60,242 bases of DNA from Nitrospirota bacterium (lineage in GTDB: Bacteria > Nitrospirota > Thermodesulfovibrionia > Thermodesulfovibrionales > JdFR-85): the NCBI GenBank assembly GCA_015484595.1, contig WFMM01000124.1, positions 1-60,242 on the forward strand, given 5' to 3'. The position numbers were made by a program, and so were the translations under genes. Below the pieces are notes generated by a model. The model did not search any database. It worked only from the letters and a program-made list of their open reading frames with translations, and had not been told where the DNA came from. Shown here in pieces: positions 5,768-60,104 of the stretch (position 1 is the stretch's first letter; the number at the start of each line of letters is the position of its first letter).

Positions 5768-8035
5768 ATGTTAAGTAAAGATATAGAGACATCTATTCAA
5801 AGGATTATAAACAGGGCAAAGCAGAAGGGGCACGAGTATGTAACAGTGGAGCACCTTCTTTATGCAATACTCGAGGATGAATGGGGAAGGGAGATACTCT
5901 ATAACTGCGGAGCAGACCTTGAGTTTCTCCGTCAGTCACTGGATGAGTATTTAGAAAACTACATACCCGTCAGACGGCTAAAGCCCAATGAACAGCCCCA
6001 GCCCACGGTGGCCTTTCAGCGCGTAATATCAAGGGCAATAGAGCATGTAAGGGCTGCTGAAAAAGAGCAAGCTGACGCAGGTGACCTGCTTGCCTACCTG
6101 TTTTACGAAGTGGACTCCTATGCGGTTGACCTCCTTGAGTCTGAAGGCATAGGCAGGATTGATGTCCTTGATTACATCTCTCACGGTATTTCCAAAAGAG
6201 AGGATGCCGGAGATCATCAATTTGACGACACTGAAGAGGAGCATCCCCGCAGACAGAGGACAAAACAAAAAACAGACCCCCTTGAGCTTTACACCACAGA
6301 GCTTGTTGAGAAGGCAAGAAAGGGAGAGTTAGACCCCATTGTGGGAAGAACCGAAGAGCTTAAGCGAACCATACAGATACTTGCAAGAAGGAGAAAAAAC
6401 AATGTGGTCTTTGTGGGTGAGCCAGGCGTAGGGAAGACAGCCCTTGTCGAGGGGCTTGCCCTAAAGATTGCCTCCGGTGATGTGCCTGAGATACTGAAGG
6501 ATGCAAAGATTTTTGCCATCGACCTTGGTGGCATGATAGCTGGCACCAAGTACAGAGGTGAGTTTGAGGCAAGACTGAAGGCAACCATTAAAAGACTGGA
6601 GGAGATTGAGGGTGCCATAATGTTCATTGACGAGATTCACACCGTGGTTGGTGCAGGCGCAACAAGTGGTGGCTCCCTTGATGCCTCCAACATCCTTAAG
6701 CCCTTTCTTGCCTCTGGAAAAATAAGATGCATAGGTGCAAGCACCTTTGAGGAATACAAAAAGTACTTTGAAAAAGACCGTGCCCTGTCAAGGAGGTTTC
6801 AGAAGGTAGAGTTACAGGAGCCCAGTATAGACGAGACCGTAAAGATACTAAAAGGTTTGAGAAACTACTACGAGGAGTTTCACGGTGTCCGCTACACAGA
6901 GGGAGCCCTGAAGGCTGCCTCAGAGCTTTCGGCAAAACACATAAACGACAAGTTCCTGCCAGACAAGGCAATAGATGTGATAGATGAGGCAGCAGCAGAG
7001 GTCAAGTTAAGGGGACAGCGGAAGGTGGTAGGTGTTCGTGACATCGAGGCAGTGGTCTCAAGGATAGCCCGTGTGCCAGTTCGCTCCATCTCCACATCAG
7101 AGACCGAAAGGCTTATGAGGCTTGAGCAGGAGCTTAAATCAGTAGTCTTTGGACAGGACGAGGCCATACACAAACTGGTATCAAGCATAAAAAGGGCAAG
7201 GGCAGGGCTTGGACACCCAGAAAAGCCAATTGGCTCTTTCCTTTTTACCGGACCAACCGGTGTGGGCAAGACCGAGGTTGCCCGACAGCTTGCAAACACC
7301 CTTGGCGTGCAGTTTATAAGATTTGACATGAGTGAATACATGGAAAAGCACTCTGTTGCCCGACTGATAGGAGCACCTCCGGGGTATGTGGGATTTGACC
7401 AGGGTGGTCTCCTAACAGATGCTATCAGGCGTAATCCTTACGCAGTGTTGCTTCTTGACGAGATTGAAAAGGCACATCCCGATGTGTTCAACATACTTTT
7501 GCAGGTGATGGATTATGCCTCTTTGACAGACAACAACGGAAAAAAGGCTGATTTCAGAAATGTCATACTCATTATGACATCCAATGCAGGGGCTCAGCTT
7601 ATGCAGCAAAGCCCCATTGGTTTCGGAAATAGGGCAGAGGATGCACTATCAAGGTCAAAGGACGAGATAAACCGTCTGTTCAGCCCTGAGTTCCGTAACC
7701 GTCTTGACGCAATAATCACCTTCAGACCACTGAACCATCAGATAATGCTCCATGTGGTTGACAAGTTCTTAAAGGAGCTCCAGAAACAGTTAACTGAGAA
7801 AAAGGTCACCCTTAAGGTCTCTGAATCTGCCCGTGACTGGCTTGCCCGTAAAGGCTTTGACCCCCGTTTTGGTGCAAGACCCCTTGCAAGGGTGATTCAG
7901 GAGGAGATTAAGGACAGGCTCTCAGACGAAATCCTCTTTGGAAGTCTCAAAAAAGGTGGCACCGTAAGTATTGACTGCCCTGATAAAAAAGGGCTGTTAT
8001 TTAATTTCAGCCAAAACAATTCACCACAAATCTAA
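5768..8035 (+). CDS. clpA: ATP-dependent Clp protease ATP-binding subunit ClpA
   Basis: It has two AAA+ modules ([16 protein letters not shown]). I place the start at ATG 5768 (MLSKDIETSIQRII), 5 nt after the clpS stop. The track start at 5714 would overlap clpS. Confidence 0.93.
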   Translation: MLSKDIETSIQRIINRAKQKGHEYVTVEHLLYAILEDEWGREILYNCGADLEFLRQSLDEYLENYIPVRRLKPNEQPQPTVAFQRVISRAIEHVRAAEKEQADAGDLLAYLFYEVDSYAVDLLESEGIGRIDVLDYISHGISKREDAGDHQFDDTEEEHPRRQRTKQKTDPLELYTTELVEKARKGELDPIVGRTEELKRTIQILARRRKNNVVFVGEPGVGKTALVEGLALKIASGDVPEILKDAKIFAIDLGGMIAGTKYRGEFEARLKATIKRLEEIEGAIMFIDEIHTVVGAGATSGGSLDASNILKPFLASGKIRCIGASTFEEYKKYFEKDRALSRRFQKVELQEPSIDETVKILKGLRNYYEEFHGVRYTEGALKAASELSAKHINDKFLPDKAIDVIDEAAAEVKLRGQRKVVGVRDIEAVVSRIARVPVRSISTSETERLMRLEQELKSVVFGQDEAIHKLVSSIKRARAGLGHPEKPIGSFLFTGPTGVGKTEVARQLANTLGVQFIRFDMSEYMEKHSVARLIGAPPGYVGFDQGGLLTDAIRRNPYAVLLLDEIEKAHPDVFNILLQVMDYASLTDNNGKKADFRNVILIMTSNAGAQLMQQSPIGFGNRAEDALSRSKDEINRLFSPEFRNRLDAIITFRPLNHQIMLHVVDKFLKELQKQLTEKKVTLKVSESARDWLARKGFDPRFGARPLARVIQEEIKDRLSDEILFGSLKKGGTVSIDCPDKKGLLFNFSQNNSPQI

Positions 8036-8072
8036 AATCACAAATCTGAAATCTCAAATCTCAAATCTGAAA
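8024..8072. repeat. Heptamer tandem array AAATCNN (H2), about 7 units
   Basis: The array reads cacaaat ctaaaat cacaaat ctgaaat ctcaaat ctcaaat ctgaaat. It begins inside the last codons of clpA and ends 14 nt before the stop of the next gene. Confidence 0.8.
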
Positions 8073-8085
8073 TTATAATCTGTTA

Positions 8086-9328: not shown

Positions 9329-9350
9329 AAAACGGTAAAGGAAAGGGGTC

Positions 9351-9419
9351 AGGATTTCAAATTTCAGATTTCTGATTTGGGATTTATTTAGAATTTAGAA
9401 ATTAGGATTTAGAATTTTA
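9351..9419. repeat. Heptamer arrays: inverted H2 (NNGATTT x5, 9351-9385) followed by inverted H1 (ATTTAGA type, 9386-9419)
   Basis: The sequence is aggatttcaaatttcagatttctgatttgggattt, then atttagaatttagaaattaggatttagaatttta. The array ends 9 nt before the aat ATG. Confidence 0.8.
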
Positions 9420-9428
9420 CGCTAATTT

Positions 9429-10145
9429 ATGCCTGTGTTTCTACTTTCAGATGAGCTGGCTTTTCCGCCTGTTGAGCTTGCAGAGCATGACGGGCTTCTT
9501 GCGGTTGGTGGTGACCTTAGCCCTGAGAGGCTCCTTCTTGCCTACAGAGAGGGCATATTCCCATGGTTTACCGAGGATACAGAGATTCTCTGGTGGTCAC
9601 CTGACCCGAGGCTCGTTCTTTTTCCTGATGAACTGAGAATCTCAAGGAGCCTCAGACAGACCATAAAAAAGGGACTCTTTAGCATCACCCTTGACAGGGC
9701 ATTTTCAGAGGTCATCAGGGCATGTGCTGAGGTGCACAGCTTAAAAGACGGTGACACCTGGATAACCCCTTCCATGATTGATGCCTACACCAGATTACAC
9801 CAGATGGGATATGCCCACTCGGTTGAGGCCTGGTCAGGAGGTAAACTGGTGGGAGGGCTTTACGGGGTCTCCCTTGGCAGTGCCTTCTTTGGTGAGTCCA
9901 TGTTTACCCGTGTGTCCAATGCATCAAAGGTTGCCTTTGTGTTTGCAGTAAAACAGTTTAAGAAGTGGGGGTTCAGACTCATAGACTGCCAAGTTACCAC
10001 TGAACATCTGAAGCGTTTCGGTGCAAGACAGATTAAGAGAGCAGAGTTTTTAAGACTTTTGAAGGAGGTCCTGAAGGACAGAACCAGAAAGGGCAGGTGG
10101 AAACTAACCGTCACGGTTAAAGAAGTCCTTGAGAAAGCCGATTAG
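9429..10145 (+). CDS. aat: Leucyl/phenylalanyl-tRNA--protein transferase
   Basis: The 238-aa product has the motifs LLLAYREGIFPWF and FFGESMFTR, which are typical of Aat. Confidence 0.9.
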   Translation: MPVFLLSDELAFPPVELAEHDGLLAVGGDLSPERLLLAYREGIFPWFTEDTEILWWSPDPRLVLFPDELRISRSLRQTIKKGLFSITLDRAFSEVIRACAEVHSLKDGDTWITPSMIDAYTRLHQMGYAHSVEAWSGGKLVGGLYGVSLGSAFFGESMFTRVSNASKVAFVFAVKQFKKWGFRLIDCQVTTEHLKRFGARQIKRAEFLRLLKEVLKDRTRKGRWKLTVTVKEVLEKAD

Positions 10146-12207: not shown

Positions 12208-12993
12208 CTACCTCCTGCTTAACTCTTCTGCCCTCAGGGTGGCAGCCTCTATGGCAGACTTGATGATACCCTTAAGACCTGACGCCTCCATTGCATATAG
12301 GCCCTCTGCCGTGGTGCCTCCTGGTGAGGTTACCATCTTCTTGAGATCCCATACAGAGATGCCCTCTTGAATCATCCTGCATGTTCCCTGGAAGGTCTTA
12401 AGTGTAAGCTTCAGGGCCTCATCAAAGGTAAGTCCCATCCTGACGCCTGCCTCTGCCATGGACTCGATAAAATACGATACAAAGGCCGGCCCACTTCCGC
12501 TTAGTGCAGTTACCACATCCATCTTTCCCTCATCAAGCACCACTGCCGTGCCTATCATGTTGAATATCTCAAGCACCCTGTTCAGGTCTGCCTTTTTTAC
12601 CCCCTTTGCAACTGAAAGCACACTCATTGCCTCCCCAACAAAGGCAGGCGTGTTGGGCATTACCCTAATAACCCTTTCTGTGCCAAGGCCCTTTGTGAGT
12701 CTTGATAGCCTGATGCCTGCAGCTATGGAGACAACAAGTTTTGTTCTGTCCACCAGGGGGGCAATCTCCTGTATAACCTCTGAGATGTTCTGTGGTTTTA
12801 CGGCAAGCACCACTGTATCGGAGCGTTTTGTAACATCAGCATTACTTTTAGAGGTGCTAACCGAGTACTGCCTTTTAAGATACCTGAGTCTTTCTGCCCT
12901 TTTGTCAGAGACGATTATATCCCTCTTACCTGCCTTCCAGAGGCCCTTTATGATGGCCTCAGCCATGTTACCTCCGCCAATAAAACCTATCAT
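12208..12993 (-). CDS. proC: Pyrroline-5-carboxylate reductase
   Basis: It has a Rossmann N-terminus (IGFIGGGNMAEAII) and the C-terminal motif SPGGTTAEGL. Confidence 0.92.
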   Translation of the reverse strand: MIGFIGGGNMAEAIIKGLWKAGKRDIIVSDKRAERLRYLKRQYSVSTSKSNADVTKRSDTVVLAVKPQNISEVIQEIAPLVDRTKLVVSIAAGIRLSRLTKGLGTERVIRVMPNTPAFVGEAMSVLSVAKGVKKADLNRVLEIFNMIGTAVVLDEGKMDVVTALSGSGPAFVSYFIESMAEAGVRMGLTFDEALKLTLKTFQGTCRMIQEGISVWDLKKMVTSPGGTTAEGLYAMEASGLKGIIKSAIEAATLRAEELSRR

Positions 12994-13682
12994 CAGTAAT
13001 TCCTCCTTCCAAAGATTGCGGTTCCCACCCTTACGATTGTTGCACCCTCTTCAACGGCAACCTCATAATCTCCTGACATGCCCATTGAAAGGTGCCTGAG
13101 GTTAAATCCCCTCTGGTTCATCTGCTCCTTTAACTGCCTTAATCTCCTGAAGTAGGGTCTTACCAGCTCGGGGTCTTCAAAATAGGGAGGAATGGTCATA
13201 AGCCCTTCAACTATCAGGTTTTCCATGCCCATCATTTCAGCAAGTAAGTGCTCAAGCTCCTCTTCTGCAACTCCGTGTTTTGTCTCTTCCTCCGAGAGTT
13301 TTACCTGCACAAGCACCCTCTGAACCTTTCCGAATTCCGAAGCTGTGCGGTTTATCTTCATGGCAAGCTCCAGACTGTCCACAGACTGTATCATATCAAA
13401 AAGCATCACTGCAGGTCGAACCTTATTTTTCTGAAGATGCCCTATCATGTGCCACTGAACGGTCTGTGGGATTTTGTCTCTGAGAATCTCTATCTTTTCC
13501 TTTGCCTCCTGAACCCTGTTTTCTCCAATCAGTCTCACACCAAGGTCTATGGCTTCCTTGACCCTGTCAGCAGGCACTGTCTTCGTGACAGCCACCAGCT
13601 CAACCTCTGAGGGGTCACGGCCTGCCCTCATTGCTGCATGAGAGATTCTCTTGTACACGGTGCTTATATTCTCAAGAAGCAT
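12993..13682 (-). CDS. yggS: YggS/YlmE-family PLP-binding protein
   Basis: The 229-aa product has a PLP lysine context (LVAVTKTVP) and HMIGHLQKNK. No SD site is visible, and the H1 repeat array abuts the ATG. Confidence 0.9.
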   Translation of the reverse strand: MLLENISTVYKRISHAAMRAGRDPSEVELVAVTKTVPADRVKEAIDLGVRLIGENRVQEAKEKIEILRDKIPQTVQWHMIGHLQKNKVRPAVMLFDMIQSVDSLELAMKINRTASEFGKVQRVLVQVKLSEEETKHGVAEEELEHLLAEMMGMENLIVEGLMTIPPYFEDPELVRPYFRRLRQLKEQMNQRGFNLRHLSMGMSGDYEVAVEEGATIVRVGTAIFGRRNY

Positions 13683-13684
13683 AA

Positions 13685-13906
13685 CTTCTAAAATTTCTAA
13701 ATCCTAATTTCTAAATCCTAAACTCTTTAGAGTGTAGGGGGGAGTTTTTAGTTTTGAGTGCATAGTGTTTAGTGCCTATTAAAAACCTTAACTCAACACT
13801 CAAAATTCAACACTCAACACTAACTACACCCCCAACCCCGATAAACGCTCTTAACGCAAAGAACGCGATAAACGCAATTAACGCAATCAACGCGACTAAC
13901 GCAATA
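13685..13906. repeat. Complete composite repeat element: H1 heptamers, G-box, H3 inverted heptamer hairpin, C-box, N9 nonamers
   Basis: Modules in order: H1 at 13685-13723 (cttctaaaatttctaaatcctaatttctaaatcctaaac); GTGTAGGGGGG at 13732-13742; (AGTKTTG)n at 13742-13774; (CAAMACT)n at 13787-13824; CTACACCCCCAACCCC at 13824-13839; seven AACGCNNNN units at 13840-13906. Confidence 0.85.
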
Positions 13907-13984
13907 CAAGCTTCCCCTTTTACTTAAAATTCAAGATATTTTATCATATAACAGAAAAAAATATTATCCTTCTTATTCACAGCT

Positions 13985-15634
13985 ATGCTTCAAGAGCTTT
14001 CTATAAAAAACTTTGCGATACTAAGAAAGGTAAGGATTCCCTTTAGCAGGGGGCTTAACATCATCACCGGTGAAACCGGTGCCGGGAAATCCCTTGTAAT
14101 CAACGCACTGGAGCTGGTTCTTGGAGGAAGGGCAAGGGCTGATGTGGTCCATCCCCAGGCAAAGGAGGCAGAGATTGAGGCGGTCTTTGAACTGCCCGAG
14201 GGGTTTAAGCTGCCTGAGAGTATCTCCACAGATGAGGACCTGCTCATCCTAAGGAGGGTTATATCAAAAAACGGAAAGGGCAGGGCCTACATAAACGACA
14301 GGGCTGTCCCACTTAAGACCCTTACAACTTTGGGAGATGAGCTTATAGACATCTACGGTCAGCACGAACATCAGAGCCTGCTTAAGCCCCAGGTTCAACA
14401 GCAGATGCTTGACAGCTTTGGAGGGCTTACTGAACTTTCCTCAGAGGTTCGAAGGCTATACCACAAATCAAAAGGGCTTGAACGGGAGATATCTGAAATT
14501 AAAGAAAGACAGAGACAGAGGGCACAGAGGATTGACCTTCTTCAATACCAGATACAGGAGATTGACGATGCAGGGCTGAACCCTGAAGAGGTAGAGGAGT
14601 TATTGAAGGAACGGGAGGTTCAGAAAAACCTGACCCATCTGCTTTACCTGACAGAAAGCTCACTTAATAGGCTTAAGGAGCAGGAAGGCTCTGTGCTTGA
14701 TGTCCTTTCAGAGCTTAGGCACTCCATAGAGGAAATATCAAATGTGGATGATTCTGCCACAGCGGTTCTTAAGATGATTGAAGATGCAGAGGCATTGCTT
14801 TCTGAGGCAGCACACGAGTTAAGGTCAATCAGAGACCACTACGAGGCTGACCCTGATAGGCTTGACCAGATTGAAAGAAGGCTTGACCTTATAGAGCGGC
14901 TTAAAAGAAAATACGGCGACTCGGTTGAGGAGATACTGAAGTACAGAGAGGATGCACAACAGGAACTAAACGAGCTTTCAGGCATGGAAGAACGGCTGGA
15001 GCAGATTGAAAAGGAGCTTTCTGACACAAGGGCATACCTGATGGAAAGGGCATCTCTACTCAGTGAAAAAAGAAGGCATGTGGCTAAAGAAATAGAGCAA
15101 AGGGTTACAGAGGTGTTAAGAACTCTTGCAATGAAAAACGCAAGATTCACTGTCAATCTGCCTCAGACAGGTCTTTCAGAGCAGGGGCTTGAGACCGTTG
15201 AGTTTCTATTTTCTGCAAACCCTGGGCAGCCTGTTAAACCCCTCAACAGGGTTGCCTCTGGTGGAGAGCTCTCAAGGGTGATGCTTGCCCTTAAAAGCAT
15301 CTTTGCCTCTTCAGAGGGTGTCCCTGTTCTGGTCTTTGACGAGGTGGATTCAGGGGTAGGTGGAAAAACAGCAGAGGCAGTTGGCACTAAGCTAAAGGAG
15401 ATATCTTCACTGCATCAGGTAATCTGCATTACCCATCTTCCACAGATAGCATCCCTTGCTGACCATCACCTGCTGGTAACGAAAAAGGAAGGCAAAGAAA
15501 CCACTGAGTTAAGCATAGAAAGCATTGCTGAAGAAAAGAGGGTAAGAGAGATTGCAAGAATGCTTAGCGGCACCGTAACCGAGACATCCCTGAGACACGC
15601 AGAGGAGCTGTTAGAGAAAAACCGGAAATGTTAA
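13985..15634 (+). CDS. recN: DNA repair protein RecN
   Basis: The 549-aa product has Walker A GETGAGKS, a long coiled coil, and the C-terminal motifs ASGGELSRVMLAL and LVFDEVDSG. Confidence 0.95.
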   Translation: MLQELSIKNFAILRKVRIPFSRGLNIITGETGAGKSLVINALELVLGGRARADVVHPQAKEAEIEAVFELPEGFKLPESISTDEDLLILRRVISKNGKGRAYINDRAVPLKTLTTLGDELIDIYGQHEHQSLLKPQVQQQMLDSFGGLTELSSEVRRLYHKSKGLEREISEIKERQRQRAQRIDLLQYQIQEIDDAGLNPEEVEELLKEREVQKNLTHLLYLTESSLNRLKEQEGSVLDVLSELRHSIEEISNVDDSATAVLKMIEDAEALLSEAAHELRSIRDHYEADPDRLDQIERRLDLIERLKRKYGDSVEEILKYREDAQQELNELSGMEERLEQIEKELSDTRAYLMERASLLSEKRRHVAKEIEQRVTEVLRTLAMKNARFTVNLPQTGLSEQGLETVEFLFSANPGQPVKPLNRVASGGELSRVMLALKSIFASSEGVPVLVFDEVDSGVGGKTAEAVGTKLKEISSLHQVICITHLPQIASLADHHLLVTKKEGKETTELSIESIAEEKRVREIARMLSGTVTETSLRHAEELLEKNRKC

Positions 15635-20632: not shown

Positions 20633-20707
20633 TGGGGCGTAGCCAAAGGGCAAGGCAGGAGATTTTGGCTCTCCCATTTGCAGGTTCGAGTCCTGCCGCC
20701 CCAGCCA
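20633..20707 (+). tRNA. tRNA-Gln (anticodon TTG), CCA encoded
   Basis: The sequence is TGGGGCGTAGCCAAAGGGCAAGGCAGGAGATTTTGGCTCTCCCATTTGCAGGTTCGAGTCCTGCCGCCCCAGCCA. It has anticodon stem GGAGA/TCTCC with loop TTTTGGC, and acceptor TGGGGCG/CGCCCCA. Confidence 0.9.
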
Positions 20708-24878: not shown

Positions 24879-25217
24879 ATGAAGAGAACATCTGTAGTAA
24901 TTATGGTGATGTTGGTGTTTTCTCTATTATCTTGCACCAAGGCAATGAGATACACAAACGATGAGATCTCTAAATATCCACCCCAGATACAGGAACACAT
25001 AAAAAAGGGAGAGGTGGTAACTGGCATGACCATGCAGCAGGTCAGGTATGCCTGGGGAGCTCCAAGCGAGATAAGGGCGCTTCCATCAACTGCTGACGGT
25101 AAGGAAAGGGTTCAGTGGACTTACAGCCGTATGCTCGGTGCCTTTAAGACCTATCTGCGATTCACCGACGGAGTGCTCACAGAGATTATAAGCACAGAGC
25201 CCGGAATAGCGAAGTAA
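24879..25217 (+). CDS. Small lipoprotein (BamE/SmpA-OmlA-like fold suspected)
   Basis: It has a signal peptide with a lipobox (LLSC) and a GMTMQQVRYAWGAPS motif. An AGGAGG SD site lies upstream. Confidence 0.55.
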   Translation: MKRTSVVIMVMLVFSLLSCTKAMRYTNDEISKYPPQIQEHIKKGEVVTGMTMQQVRYAWGAPSEIRALPSTADGKERVQWTYSRMLGAFKTYLRFTDGVLTEIISTEPGIAK

Positions 25218-25221
25218 ATAT

Positions 25222-25414
25222 TAGGGGGTAGGGGGGTAGCGTGTAGGGAGTAGTTTTTAGTTTTGAGTGAATAGTTTTGAGTGTTTAGTAAAAAACTAAA
25301 CTCAACACTCAACATTCAAAATTCAACACTCAAAACTAACTACCCCCAACCCCTAAACGCTATTAACGCGATAAACGCGATAAACGCAATTAACGCAATA
25401 AACGCAAAAAACGT
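25222..25414. repeat. Composite repeat element: G-box, H3 inverted heptamer hairpin, C-box, N9 nonamers
   Basis: Modules in order: TAGGGGGTAGGGGGGTAG...GTGTAGGGAG (25222-25253); (AGTTTTG/AGTGTTT)n to 25290; A6 loop; (CAAMACT)n at 25297-25340; CTACCCCCAACCCC; six or seven AACGCNNNN units at 25352-25414. The element ends 17 nt before the alaS ATG. Confidence 0.85.
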
Positions 25415-25430
25415 ATTTTCTGAGGTTGTT

Positions 25431-28483: not shown

Positions 28484-28500
28484 CTGATATAATAAATGTA

Positions 28501-28600
28501 GGAAGTAGGAAATAGGGTGCAGGGTGTAGTGAAGGTCATTTACTAAGCATTAAAAACTAAACACTCAAAACTTAAAACTAATAACTACCCCCTACACCCT
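28501..28600. repeat. Degenerate copy of the G-box/H3/C-box hairpin element
   Basis: AGGGTGTAG (28521-28529) is the exact complement of CTACACCCT (28592-28600). The right arm ctaaacactcaaaacttaaaactaataa retains CAAMACT heptamers, while the left arm has decayed. Confidence 0.6.
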
Positions 28601-28624
28601 ATAATCAAAAAAGGAGGAGGGCCT

Positions 28625-30657: not shown

Positions 30658-31200
30658 ATGAAGCTCCTTATGCATATCTGCTGTGCCAATTGTGCACTTT
30701 ATCCACTGAAGACACTCAAAGACAGGGGTATCAGTCTTCACGGGCTGTGGTTTAATCCTAACATCCATCCCTACAGGGAGTACAAAAAAAGACTCGACAC
30801 CCTGAGGGAGCTTCAGGAGCTTTGGAAACTGGATATCACCTACAAAGACCACTATGGCCTTAAAGAGTTTCTGAGAGCCGTTGTTTATGACGAAAAAAAC
30901 AGATGCCAATTCTGCTACAGGGTAAGGCTAAAAGAGGCAGCAGCCCTGGCAAAAGAGCTCGGGATGGATGCATTTTCTACGACGCTTCTTGTAAGCCCCT
31001 ATCAGAAGATCGAGCTCATCAGGGATATTGGAAAAGAGATTCAGGAACAGTTCGATGTAGAGTTCTTCTTTGAAGACTTCAGAGATGGCTTTCGGGAAGG
31101 AATGAGGATGTCAAGGGAGCTTGACTTTTATAGACAAAACTACTGCGGCTGCATATATTCGGAAATGGAAAGATTTTTAAAAACAAAGAGAACCAAGTAA
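30658..31200 (+). CDS. queH: Epoxyqueuosine reductase QueH (DUF208)
   Basis: It has MHICCANC, CYRVRL, STTLLVSPYQ and NYCGCIYS cysteine motifs. Confidence 0.85.
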   Translation: MKLLMHICCANCALYPLKTLKDRGISLHGLWFNPNIHPYREYKKRLDTLRELQELWKLDITYKDHYGLKEFLRAVVYDEKNRCQFCYRVRLKEAAALAKELGMDAFSTTLLVSPYQKIELIRDIGKEIQEQFDVEFFFEDFRDGFREGMRMSRELDFYRQNYCGCIYSEMERFLKTKRTK

Positions 31201-31323
31201 TTGGTATATTGGTATATTGGTTAATCGGGTTAGTTGCATTAGCATCTGGTATAAACTATGATTTAGTGAAAAATAGTGAATTTGGAATTTGTTTAGAATT
31301 TAGATATTAGGATTTAGGATTTA
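31201..31323. repeat. Repeat-rich spacer: TTGGTATAT direct repeats, TAGTGAA units, then an H1 array in TTTAGAA orientation (31279-31323)
   Basis: It contains ttggtatattggtatattgg, then tagtgaaaaatagtgaa, then aatttggaatttgtttagaatttagatattaggatttaggattta. The array ends 11 nt before ATG 31335. Confidence 0.7.
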
Positions 31324-31334
31324 TCATAATAAGG

Positions 31335-40440: not shown

Positions 40441-40626
40441 CCCCCCCAATATTTCTAAATACTAATTTCTAAACACTAAACACTAAACACTCAACACTAA
40501 ACACTAAACACTCAACACTATCTACCCCAACCCTATAAACGCTACAACGCAATTAACGCTATTAACGCGACTAACGCAACGAACGCAATGAACGCTATAA
40601 ACGCAATTAACGCTATTAACGCAATT
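40441..40626. repeat. Composite repeat element filling the archease-rtcB spacer: C7, H1, (CACTMAA)7, C-box, N9 x11
   Basis: Modules in order: atttctaaatactaatttctaaa (40451-40473); cactaaa/cactcaa x7 (40474-40522); TACCCCAACCCT (40523-40534); eleven AACGC-cored units (40535-40626) running into the archease stop codon. Confidence 0.85.
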
Positions 40627-59945: not shown

Positions 59946-60104
59946 TAATCCTAATTTCTAAATCCTAAATTCTAAACAAATTCCAAAAACTAAATTCCAA
60001 ATTACAAATTCGCTAACGCAACTAACGCGATAAACGCAATCAACGCAATAAACTCGATGAACGCAATGAACGCAAAGAACGCTATTAACGCAAAAAACAC
60101 AATA
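59946..60104. repeat. Composite repeat element: H1 heptamers, AAATTCC-type units, N9 nonamers (about 10 units)
   Basis: Modules in order: taatcctaatttctaaatcctaaattctaaac (59946-59977); aaattccaaaaactaaattccaaattacaaatt (59978-60010); AACGC cores from 60015 to 60087 at a 9-nt period, with degenerate units aactc and aacac. Confidence 0.85.

Follow-up and report, generated by a model that had tools for sequence, protein, structure and literature searches.

A lineage-restricted mosaic of short tandem arrays, with a polarity that follows transcription, in the intergenic spacers of an uncultured Nitrospirota genus

The 60,242-nt contig WFMM01000124.1 of a Nitrospirota bacterium (assembly GCA_015484595.1), here called the window, carries at 13685-13906, in the spacer between divergent yggS-like and recN-like genes, a 222-bp element made of short tandem arrays stacked in a defined order. 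It belongs to a real, non-random and lineage-restricted family of mosaic repeats, which occurs in three of four species sampled from one uncultured Nitrospirota genus, where it is dispensable and fast-evolving. On balance, we consider that the element is probably a copy of a selfish or near-neutral repeat family whose orientation is filtered at the level of the transcript, and that it most likely serves little or no function. The window corresponds to contig C124 in an assembly (G000) of 2.11 Mb and 170 contigs and is syntenic with contigs of all three congeners that complete the sample of four species, namely the sister species G001, G002 (95% complete) and G003. Genes are those called by an open reading frame (ORF) proxy.

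Composition and order of the modules

The modules of the element were read directly from the sequence, on the plus strand. The first one, H (13685-13722), is an array of TTCTAAA/TCCTAAA heptamers, which on the minus strand reads (TTTAGRA)n and ends 3 nt 5' of the yggS start codon. It is followed by the G-box GTGTAGGGGGG (13732-13742), the S module, which is one GTAGGGN-type unit and forms the left closure of a hairpin. The left arm of this hairpin (13743-13776) consists of AGTKTTK heptamers (AGTTTTT, AGTTTTG, AGTGCAT, AGTGTTT and AGTGCC), the 13-nt loop TATTAAAAACCTT (13777-13789) contains no ORF and is similar across copies, and the right arm (13790-13823) is made of CAAMACT heptamers. The C-box CTACACCCCCAACCCC (13824-13839) joins CTACAC, the inverted partner of the G-box, to the C-rich linker CCCCAACCCC, and the element ends with the N module, seven AACGCNNNN nonamers at 13844-13906. 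Written as RNA, the array units are (AAUUGCGUU)n for the nonamer and (UUUAGAA)n for the H heptamer.

The module list given by an initial annotation of this DNA was thus found complete in place, far above shuffled sequences: three consecutive AACGC-N4 units matched 23 times in the window, always on the plus strand, against 0.00 in shuffles, and three AGTKTTK units, with two mismatches at most, matched 25 times against 0.04. The hairpin folds at −39.7 kcal/mol (z = −4.4), and the plus strand of the element counts 29 G and 54 C. In Rfam 15, at the gathering score, the sole match of the window was a tRNA at 20633-20704, with none for the element. The same annotation had reported an absence of terminal inverted repeats, which is correct for the whole composite from H to N, but not for the hairpin, in which the G-box/C-box pair and the two arms are inverted repeats. 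Its inventory of modules was also incomplete, as arrays of CACAGAGNA, ACCAATA and AGATTTH, and a non-repeat block between H and N, belong to the family as well.

To count the modules in the whole genome, we used degenerate consensus patterns of three units and compared them with a third-order Markov null, because AACGCAATT when reversed contains AACGC again and makes a reversed-sequence control uninformative. The scan returned about 200 arrays each for H and for the arms, about 150 for GTAGSGN and about 100 for the nonamer, against 0-12 in the null, together with smaller sets of CACAGAGNA, ACCAATA and AGATTTH arrays; tandem-repeat detection with TRF gave 452 rows of period 7, drawn from a narrow lexicon. 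The module tokens merged into 357 clusters, 152 of them with at least two modules, and 85% of the module bases lay outside ORF calls.

The order of the modules is nearly invariant. In G000 the G-box is followed by the left arm in 60 of 65 adjacencies, the left arm by the right arm in 58 of 60 (the opposite palindrome occurs once) and the hairpin by N in plus orientation in 38 of 38, while H and N lie on the same strand in 33 of 36 cases. The larger copies follow the grammar (H) - G-box - hairpin - C-box - N - (ACCAATA) - H - N, and G001 and G003 share these module adjacencies. A fixed order retained by partial copies, as initially proposed, is therefore borne out, with order and orientation kept at 92-100% and the same grammar in two other species. 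Moreover, the hairpin, a foldback of about 100 nt whose AGTKTTK arms are closed by GTAGGGN/NCCCTAC boxes, is a dispersed family of 62-80 loci, 38 of which align at 80% coverage or more with about 84% identity; in 37 aligned copies the order of the variant heptamers is kept and the loops are similar. The whole 222-bp composite matches 13 loci over at least 80% of its length in one alignment. The ends of the contigs were not enriched in repeats (23 of 340, against 6.2% expected), so that the repeats do not explain the fragmentation of the assembly.

Co-occurrence of the modules is less informative. Taken over all 1053 spacers, pairs of modules occur together at 3-5 times the expected frequency (p from 1e-6 to 1e-27); when only the 263 spacers that bear repeats are considered, the G-box/arm pair is the only one above expectation. 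Co-occurrence alone thus mostly reflects that some spacers are permissive, and, because it is weak on its own, the case for a composite rests on order and orientation. The association of modules claimed initially holds genome-wide in that order and orientation are non-random, and, for co-occurrence within repeat-bearing spacers, it holds for the G-box/arm pair only. One could object that there is no composite at all, and that independent slippage arrays adjoin by chance in permissive spacers; the co-occurrence within repeat-bearing spacers, and one array that grows in place across the four species (see below), would agree with this. Nonetheless, we regard it as scarcely credible, since it is already contradicted by the fixed order and orientation, by the non-repetitive junctions and loops conserved across loci, and by the long alignments of the whole composite.

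Polarity relative to genes and the yggS/recN spacer

The plus strand, on which the element had been described, turned out to be antisense to the genes for most copies. In fact, when the strand carrying AACGC and TTCTAAA was compared with co-directional flanking genes, it was antisense in 93 clusters and sense in 21, and for H arrays next to tandem genes the figures were 79 and 16. In 122 of 152 clusters the H side lies next to a gene start, at a median distance of 22 nt, and in 102 of the 152 the N side lies next to a stop codon, at a median of 7.5 nt. Read in the direction of the gene, the stop codon is followed by (NATTGCGTT)n, the G-rich box, the hairpin, the C-rich box, (TTTAGRA)n, the Shine-Dalgarno and the ATG; the H arrays typically leave 14-18 nt up to the ATG and stop immediately 5' of a normal Shine-Dalgarno. 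Divergent spacers hold 29 clusters and convergent ones 9, against a background of 206 and 225 spacers, respectively. Orientation flips together with the gene strand inside single contigs in 31 of 39 pairs, and the gene-strand bias per contig is on average only 63%; these observations rule out the replication strand as the cause and indicate that polarity follows transcription.

The polarity is accompanied by a marked base skew. In tandem spacers, the sense strand has more G than C in 113 of 143 clusters (p = 2e-12), with a median skew of +0.32, compared to +0.06 in repeat-free spacers. C-rich, G-poor untranslated RNA is the loading site of Rho in Rho-dependent termination, and Rho is encoded in the G000 genome. 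Since the opposite orientation would put 100-200 nt of such RNA in leaders and operon junctions, we favour selection against Rho-dependent polarity as the filter.

In the scheme that we prefer, the elements would be transcribed as leaders and as operon-junction RNA, the arrays would grow via slippage or unequal exchange, and whole elements would be copied between spacers by recombination or by an unknown mobilising activity. Being selfish or near-neutral, they would owe their polarity to selection on the transcript, the favoured filter being the avoidance of long C-rich, G-poor untranslated RNA that would load Rho in the sense direction. Possible side effects are on translation initiation, given an A/U-rich array that abuts the Shine-Dalgarno, and on mRNA processing at the hairpin.

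The yggS/recN spacer illustrates how such an element may sit in a leader. The yggS-like gene (12993-13682, minus strand) diverges from a gene designated recN-like in the first reading (13985-15634, plus strand). Between the element and the latter gene lies a predicted promoter-like block, TTTACT-17-TATCAT, directed toward recN (13919-13947, plus strand), whose core AGATATTTTATCATA, preceded by CCTTTTACT (block CCTTTTACT...AGATATTTTATCATA), is conserved in this spacer in all four species. It was the sole promoter-like site found on the plus strand, and on the minus strand it reads TAAAAT toward yggS, so that it looks like a compact bidirectional promoter, with TATCAT facing recN and TAAAAT facing yggS. 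The spacer measures 82 nt in G002 and 93 nt in G003, with no repeats in either; 238 nt in G001, where it contains four G-box units, a minimal hairpin AGT-AGTAAAAAC-ACT and ten nonamers, with no H; and 301 nt, with the full composite, in G000. Because the element is placed between the conserved promoter-like block and the yggS ATG, it would form the yggS leader, and the composite is most likely a recent insertion into that leader, read on the minus strand.

Alternatively, the composite could be a self-contained unit of transcription punctuation, in which the hairpin would end the upstream transcript and the TTTAGAA array would be a sigma-70-like promoter (TTTAGA-17-TAGAAT) for the next gene. 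The 7-nt period sets TTTAGA and TAGAAT 17 nt apart, as at 9386-9414, the arrays lie 14-25 nt upstream of start codons, and divergent spacers are enriched over convergent ones. Nevertheless, when 13600-14050 was scanned, neither a promoter-like nor a terminator-like site turned up within the element, no U-run follows the hairpin, a start about 7 nt past the array would all but abolish the leader ahead of the Shine-Dalgarno, and A/T-rich repeats easily match a promoter consensus by chance. We therefore regard punctuation as improbable.

Turnover among relatives and the question of mobility

The window contains further copies and arrays, all on the plus strand. The partial copies listed by the initial annotation are present as described, with the same left-to-right order: one of G-box and hairpin only (102-210); one of H, a non-repeat block and N (741-946); one without H, with four G-box units, the hairpin, the C-box and seven N units (25222-25418); a decayed hairpin with the closure AGGGTGTAG/CTACACCCT (28498-28602); one without left arm, in which H grades into seven CAAMACT units, followed by the C-box and eleven N units (40441-40626); and one of H and then N, joined at the conserved boundary CAAATTCGCT/AACGC (59946-60104). 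The copy at 25222-25418 lies between the stop and start codons of co-directional plus-strand genes, which is the minority orientation, and that at 40441-40626 is antisense to its flanking minus-strand genes, the majority one. Three other loci hold arrays: AAATCTN heptamers, a variant of H, at 8027-8081; AGATTTN and TTTAGAA arrays at 9352-9421, ending 7 nt 5' of a gene start at 9429; and TATTGGT and TTTAGAA arrays in gene-sense orientation at 31199-31326, complemented in the G001 orthologue by GCGTT nonamers and a small hairpin. The elements had been said to make up most of the non-coding DNA of the window, which is an overstatement: by the ORF proxy they amount to about 1.4 kb of about 5.0 kb (28%), and genome-wide to about 11% of spacer bases.

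Two details of these copies deserve mention. At 40443-40519, H passes unit by unit into the right-arm heptamer (TTCTAAA, CACTAAA, CACTCAA), a gradation which suggests that module types may be interconvertible through point changes and unit turnover. At 800-850, the non-repetitive block TTTCCAAACTATAATAACAATATTTTCGGTAAATTTAAGCTTATGGCAA of about 60 nt, located between H and nonamer arrays and containing a perfect TATAAT, recurs in G000 at C110, about 9930-9990, and in C129/C151.

The comparison of orthologous sites revealed rapid turnover. The junction at 25215 spans 17 nt in G002, 82 nt in G001, where it holds G-boxes and ACCAATA units, and 205 nt in G000; at 28495, the site is empty in G002 and the G001 orthologue of the decayed hairpin is better kept; at 9345, G001 is without the 75-nt array; and the locus at 8020 has about 0, 2, 4 and 8 heptamers in G002, G003, G001 and G000, respectively. 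Modules are swapped between orthologous spacers of the sister species. Furthermore, the G000 assembly includes overlapping alleles, 94-99% identical, of co-occurring strains (C33/C41, C47/C99 and C129/C151), and these three co-assembled pairs differ mainly by whole repeat units: three more nonamers and one heptamer fewer in one pair, about three heptamers and two nonamers in another, and four more nonamers in the remaining one.

When matches to the N (AACGC nonamers), H (TTCTAAA heptamers), A (hairpin arms) and S (GTAGGGN G-box) modules were counted in 41 genomes, the four main modules were seen to rise and fall together. The N/H/A/S counts were 211/234/326/212 in G000, 83/158/81/632 in G001, 28/234/48/120 in G003 and 0/3/6/0 in G002. 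Most of the other 37 relatives were near zero; exceptions include two genomes of a sister genus, G015 with 0/38/40/51 and G011 with 31 S matches.

Arrays of related appearance were also met outside this lineage. Nonamer arrays anchored on AACGC occur in other phyla, among the matches listed, at loci L133 (JACQEL010000833), L135, L078 and L105, as well as L040, L103, L126, L138 and L143; the entry for L135 and L078 is DATITS01, a Desulfobacterales metagenome-assembled genome (MAG), and L105 is from an Aminicenantes MAG. Some have mixed units as in G000, L135 is an inverted pair and several are homogeneous (AACGCAAAG)n. Of the 115 stretches listed by the scan with five AACGC-N4 units, about 20 resemble the G000 arrays, and most of the matches listed appear to be coding repeats of GC-rich genomes (one, L107, was inspected). 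In GC-rich Nitrospirota of other classes, AT-rich AGTTTTG/CAAAACT hairpins are found between genes at L028 (G305:C1:17627-17707) and L029 (G235:C13:37320-37391), and differ from the local base composition, as imported DNA would.

Several modules of the mosaic are also the arm types of small gene cassettes, because inverted arrays of these types enclose PF05635 genes and a PDDEXK_3 pseudogene. All three PF05635 genes of G000, coding for the protein of 23S rRNA intervening sequences (IVS), lie inside inverted heptamer arms: these are AGTKTTG/CAAMACT in the cassette at C169:5204-5658, placed between a stop codon and a Shine-Dalgarno, and TATTGGT/ACCAATA in that of C105. The PDDEXK_3 pseudogene (C152:65152-65448) is flanked by inverted CACAGAGNA arrays. 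The hairpin of our element encloses no PF05635 gene and may be an empty relative of the PF05635 cassette, judging from its arms. On C17, spaced GAGGATTGCGAC-like words stand on both sides of a PF05635 gene (435-755), at 150-400 and 820-850, and may be the remnant of a CRISPR array into which the cassette was inserted.

These findings raise the alternative that the hairpin, and perhaps the entire composite with it, is a non-autonomous miniature mobile element, whose autonomous forms would be the cassettes with the same kinds of arms around a 23S-IVS-protein or GxxExxY nuclease gene. The enclosure of the three PF05635 genes and of the pseudogene would fit, as would the same-heptamer hairpins in GC-rich Nitrospirota of other classes and the presence or absence of elements in orthologous spacers. 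On the other hand, PF05635 counts in G000, G001, G002 and G003 are 3, 3, 1 and 0, those of PF13366 are 1 (the pseudogene), 0, 0 and 0, and both families are common in repeat-free relatives. The flanks of the 37 aligned hairpin copies show no shared direct repeat and hence no visible target-site duplication, with variable end arrays blurring the true ends; the minimal hairpin of G001, at the same site, looks like growth or shrinkage of the arms in place and not like the insertion of a unit; and neither protein has known activity on such arms. We thus consider this explanation unlikely. For Y1/RAYT genes (PF01797), G000 and G003 were negative and G001 gave a single weak match, in agreement with the initial statement that no transposase is associated, as far as a search limited to Y1_Tnp can tell. 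PF13366, PF05635 and PF01797 were all discarded as drivers, since their gene counts do not track the repeat kit across genomes.

Constraint, known repeats and significance

Within the arrays, the nonamers are constrained by position. Their consensus is A (97%), A (95%), C (93%), g (73%), C (93%), a (62%), A (93%), t (66%) and a free ninth position, percentages that are inflated by the consensus of the scan itself, whereas the contrast between positions stands. There are 172 different units among 862. The GTAGGGN arrays could not be identified as G-quadruplexes: the canonical motif (at least four G3 tracts, with loops of 7 nt at most) is present in only 27 of 150 and, with loops up to 12 nt, in 41, and a recurrent GTAGCGT unit breaks the series of G3 tracts.

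Several observations speak against a selfish or near-neutral family filtered by its transcripts. Positions 1, 2, 3, 5 and 7 of the nonamer are kept at 93-97% while position 9 is free, which fits recognition by a factor better than neutral junk, and identical neighbouring nonamers are rarer than in shuffles (14 vs 24.1 ± 4.8), a deficit that is odd for slippage and provides the main argument for a factor that reads or writes the motif. All modules come or go together between congeners, and this joint gain and loss hints at one trans-acting cause. No compensatory change was found in 8 consensus pairs of the hairpin, where alternative heptamer registers probably blur the alignment and make this result uninformative, and the fold shows no strand preference (14 vs 16); since compensatory changes are lacking and both strands fold equally, nothing supports a selected RNA structure. 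The favoured Rho filter is drawn from base composition only. Finally, the hairpin copies are a homologous dispersed family and not independent, so that the adjacency counts overstate the number of events, and the genes of our proxy (2039 genes, 90% coding) have approximate start codons.

Part of this evidence would suit arrays that are a cis-regulatory code, in which a protein or RNA peculiar to the lineage recognises the periodic motifs of 9 and 7 nt on mRNA or single-stranded DNA and so controls the translation or stability of many genes, as proposed for the TAACTGA repeats. Besides the position-specific conservation in heterogeneous arrays and the scarcity of identical neighbours, the TTTAGAA/TTAGGAT arrays stop just 5' of the Shine-Dalgarno, comparably to TAACTGA repeats (PMC4679880), polarity tracks transcription, and the module kit is all-or-none between congeners. 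However, G002 and G003 have the same gene junctions without any element, sites are poorly conserved, with module content differing between sister species and unit number between strains, and no candidate reader was identified. We hold a code of this kind to be a secondary possibility, rather unlikely. A broader proposal, which we regard as doubtful, is that the arrays are the footprint of one undiscovered trans-acting system that would lay down or preserve periodic motifs of 7 and 9 nt in transcribed spacers, their polarity being set by transcription. It would be present in G000, G001, G003 and partly in a sister genus, and missing in G002; the constrained nonamer, with its neighbours kept different, would be its recognition code, and the cassettes of the IVS protein and the GxxExxY nuclease, together with the AACGC arrays of other phyla, would belong to the same biology.

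A mosaic repeat with transcript-filtered orientation, as we prefer to read the family, has partial analogues. The short tandemly repeated repetitive (STRR) sequences of heterocystous cyanobacteria, with the consensus units CCCCAGT, TTGGTCA and CAACAGT, are intergenic heptamer arrays reportedly described by Mazel et al. in 1990. These three words are not among the recurrent period-7 consensus units of G000; the likeness to cyanobacterial heptamers that had been noted is thus one of habit (tandem, many-copy and mainly intergenic) and does not extend to those units. The TAACTGA heptamer repeats of Beggiatoaceae, Cyanobacteria and Bacteroidetes (MacGregor 2015, PMC4679880), for which S1, Csp or CsrA are the candidate readers, are similarly intergenic tandem arrays pointing toward start codons and ending a few nt before them, with a patchy phylogenetic distribution and no known mechanism. 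Unlike the G000 family, they consist of a single heptamer type in 2-6 copies, without ordered partners, hairpin or nonamer array, and often replace the ribosome-binding site, whereas the G000 array stops just 5' of a normal Shine-Dalgarno (PMC4679880). The GGGNATC and GGGGA(C/T)T repeats of Xanthomonas and Nostoc (Rehm et al. 2015, PMC4692102) are abundant intergenic heptamers with a strand bias relative to ORFs, mostly between co-directional genes, and those of Xanthomonas are transcribed. They are, however, under-represented in divergent spacers, where the G000 elements are enriched, no fixed multi-module order is reported for them (PMC4692102), and the G000 arrays mostly have no quadruplex motif.

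The closest design is that of BOX (boxA-boxBn-boxC) in Streptococcus pneumoniae and S. suis (Croucher et al. 2011, PMC3049150). It shares a fixed module order, internal tandem modules in variable number, the existence of partial forms, a stem-loop by prediction, strain-to-strain differences in unit number and a frequent location in what are there reported as transcribed regions. It differs in that its modules are unique sequences of 45-59 nt and not arrays of 7 or 9 nt, its termini resemble ISSpn2, there is no sequence similarity, and a comparable gene-relative strand polarity was not found for BOX in the passages of PMC3049150 that were consulted. The resemblance would be one of design only, and homology is not expected. 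Inverted pairs of tandem heptamers forming long intergenic hairpins are known as the heptanucleotide-repeat palindromes of Geobacter metallireducens (Aklujkar et al. 2009, PMC2700814), and PF05635-bearing 23S rRNA IVS, whose stems are cut by RNase III, occur for example in Coxiella (PMC4990558), a parallel to the arm type that encloses the 23S_rRNA_IVP gene at C169. The hairpin of the element differs from both, as it is gene-free, lies outside rRNA and is flanked by polar direct arrays unreported there. Repetitive extragenic palindromes (REP) and the bacterial interspersed mosaic elements (BIME) are likewise extragenic, high-copy mosaics of palindromic units and linkers in a set arrangement (PMC3333891, PMC2817692), but G000 and G003 have no Y1/RAYT gene and the G000 units are arrays, not REPs of 20-40 nt. 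A full-text literature search found no paper describing an ordered, transcription-polar stack of such arrays; the initial impression of an undescribed architecture therefore stands for the ordered stack, with the qualification that analogues exist in BOX, BIME mosaics and TAACTGA arrays.

Arrays of heptamers and nonamers are a long-noticed and unexplained feature of many bacterial genomes. The lineage described here offers a natural experiment, with congeners that possess or lack the repeat kit, share gene order and have corresponding spacers of 82-301 nt; moreover, as polarity is tied to transcription and not to the chromosome strand, both the origin of the arrays and their polarity become testable. 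Even if inert, the arrays would still be useful as fast strain markers, and would caution that the long 'leaders' seen in such genomes may have been inserted recently.

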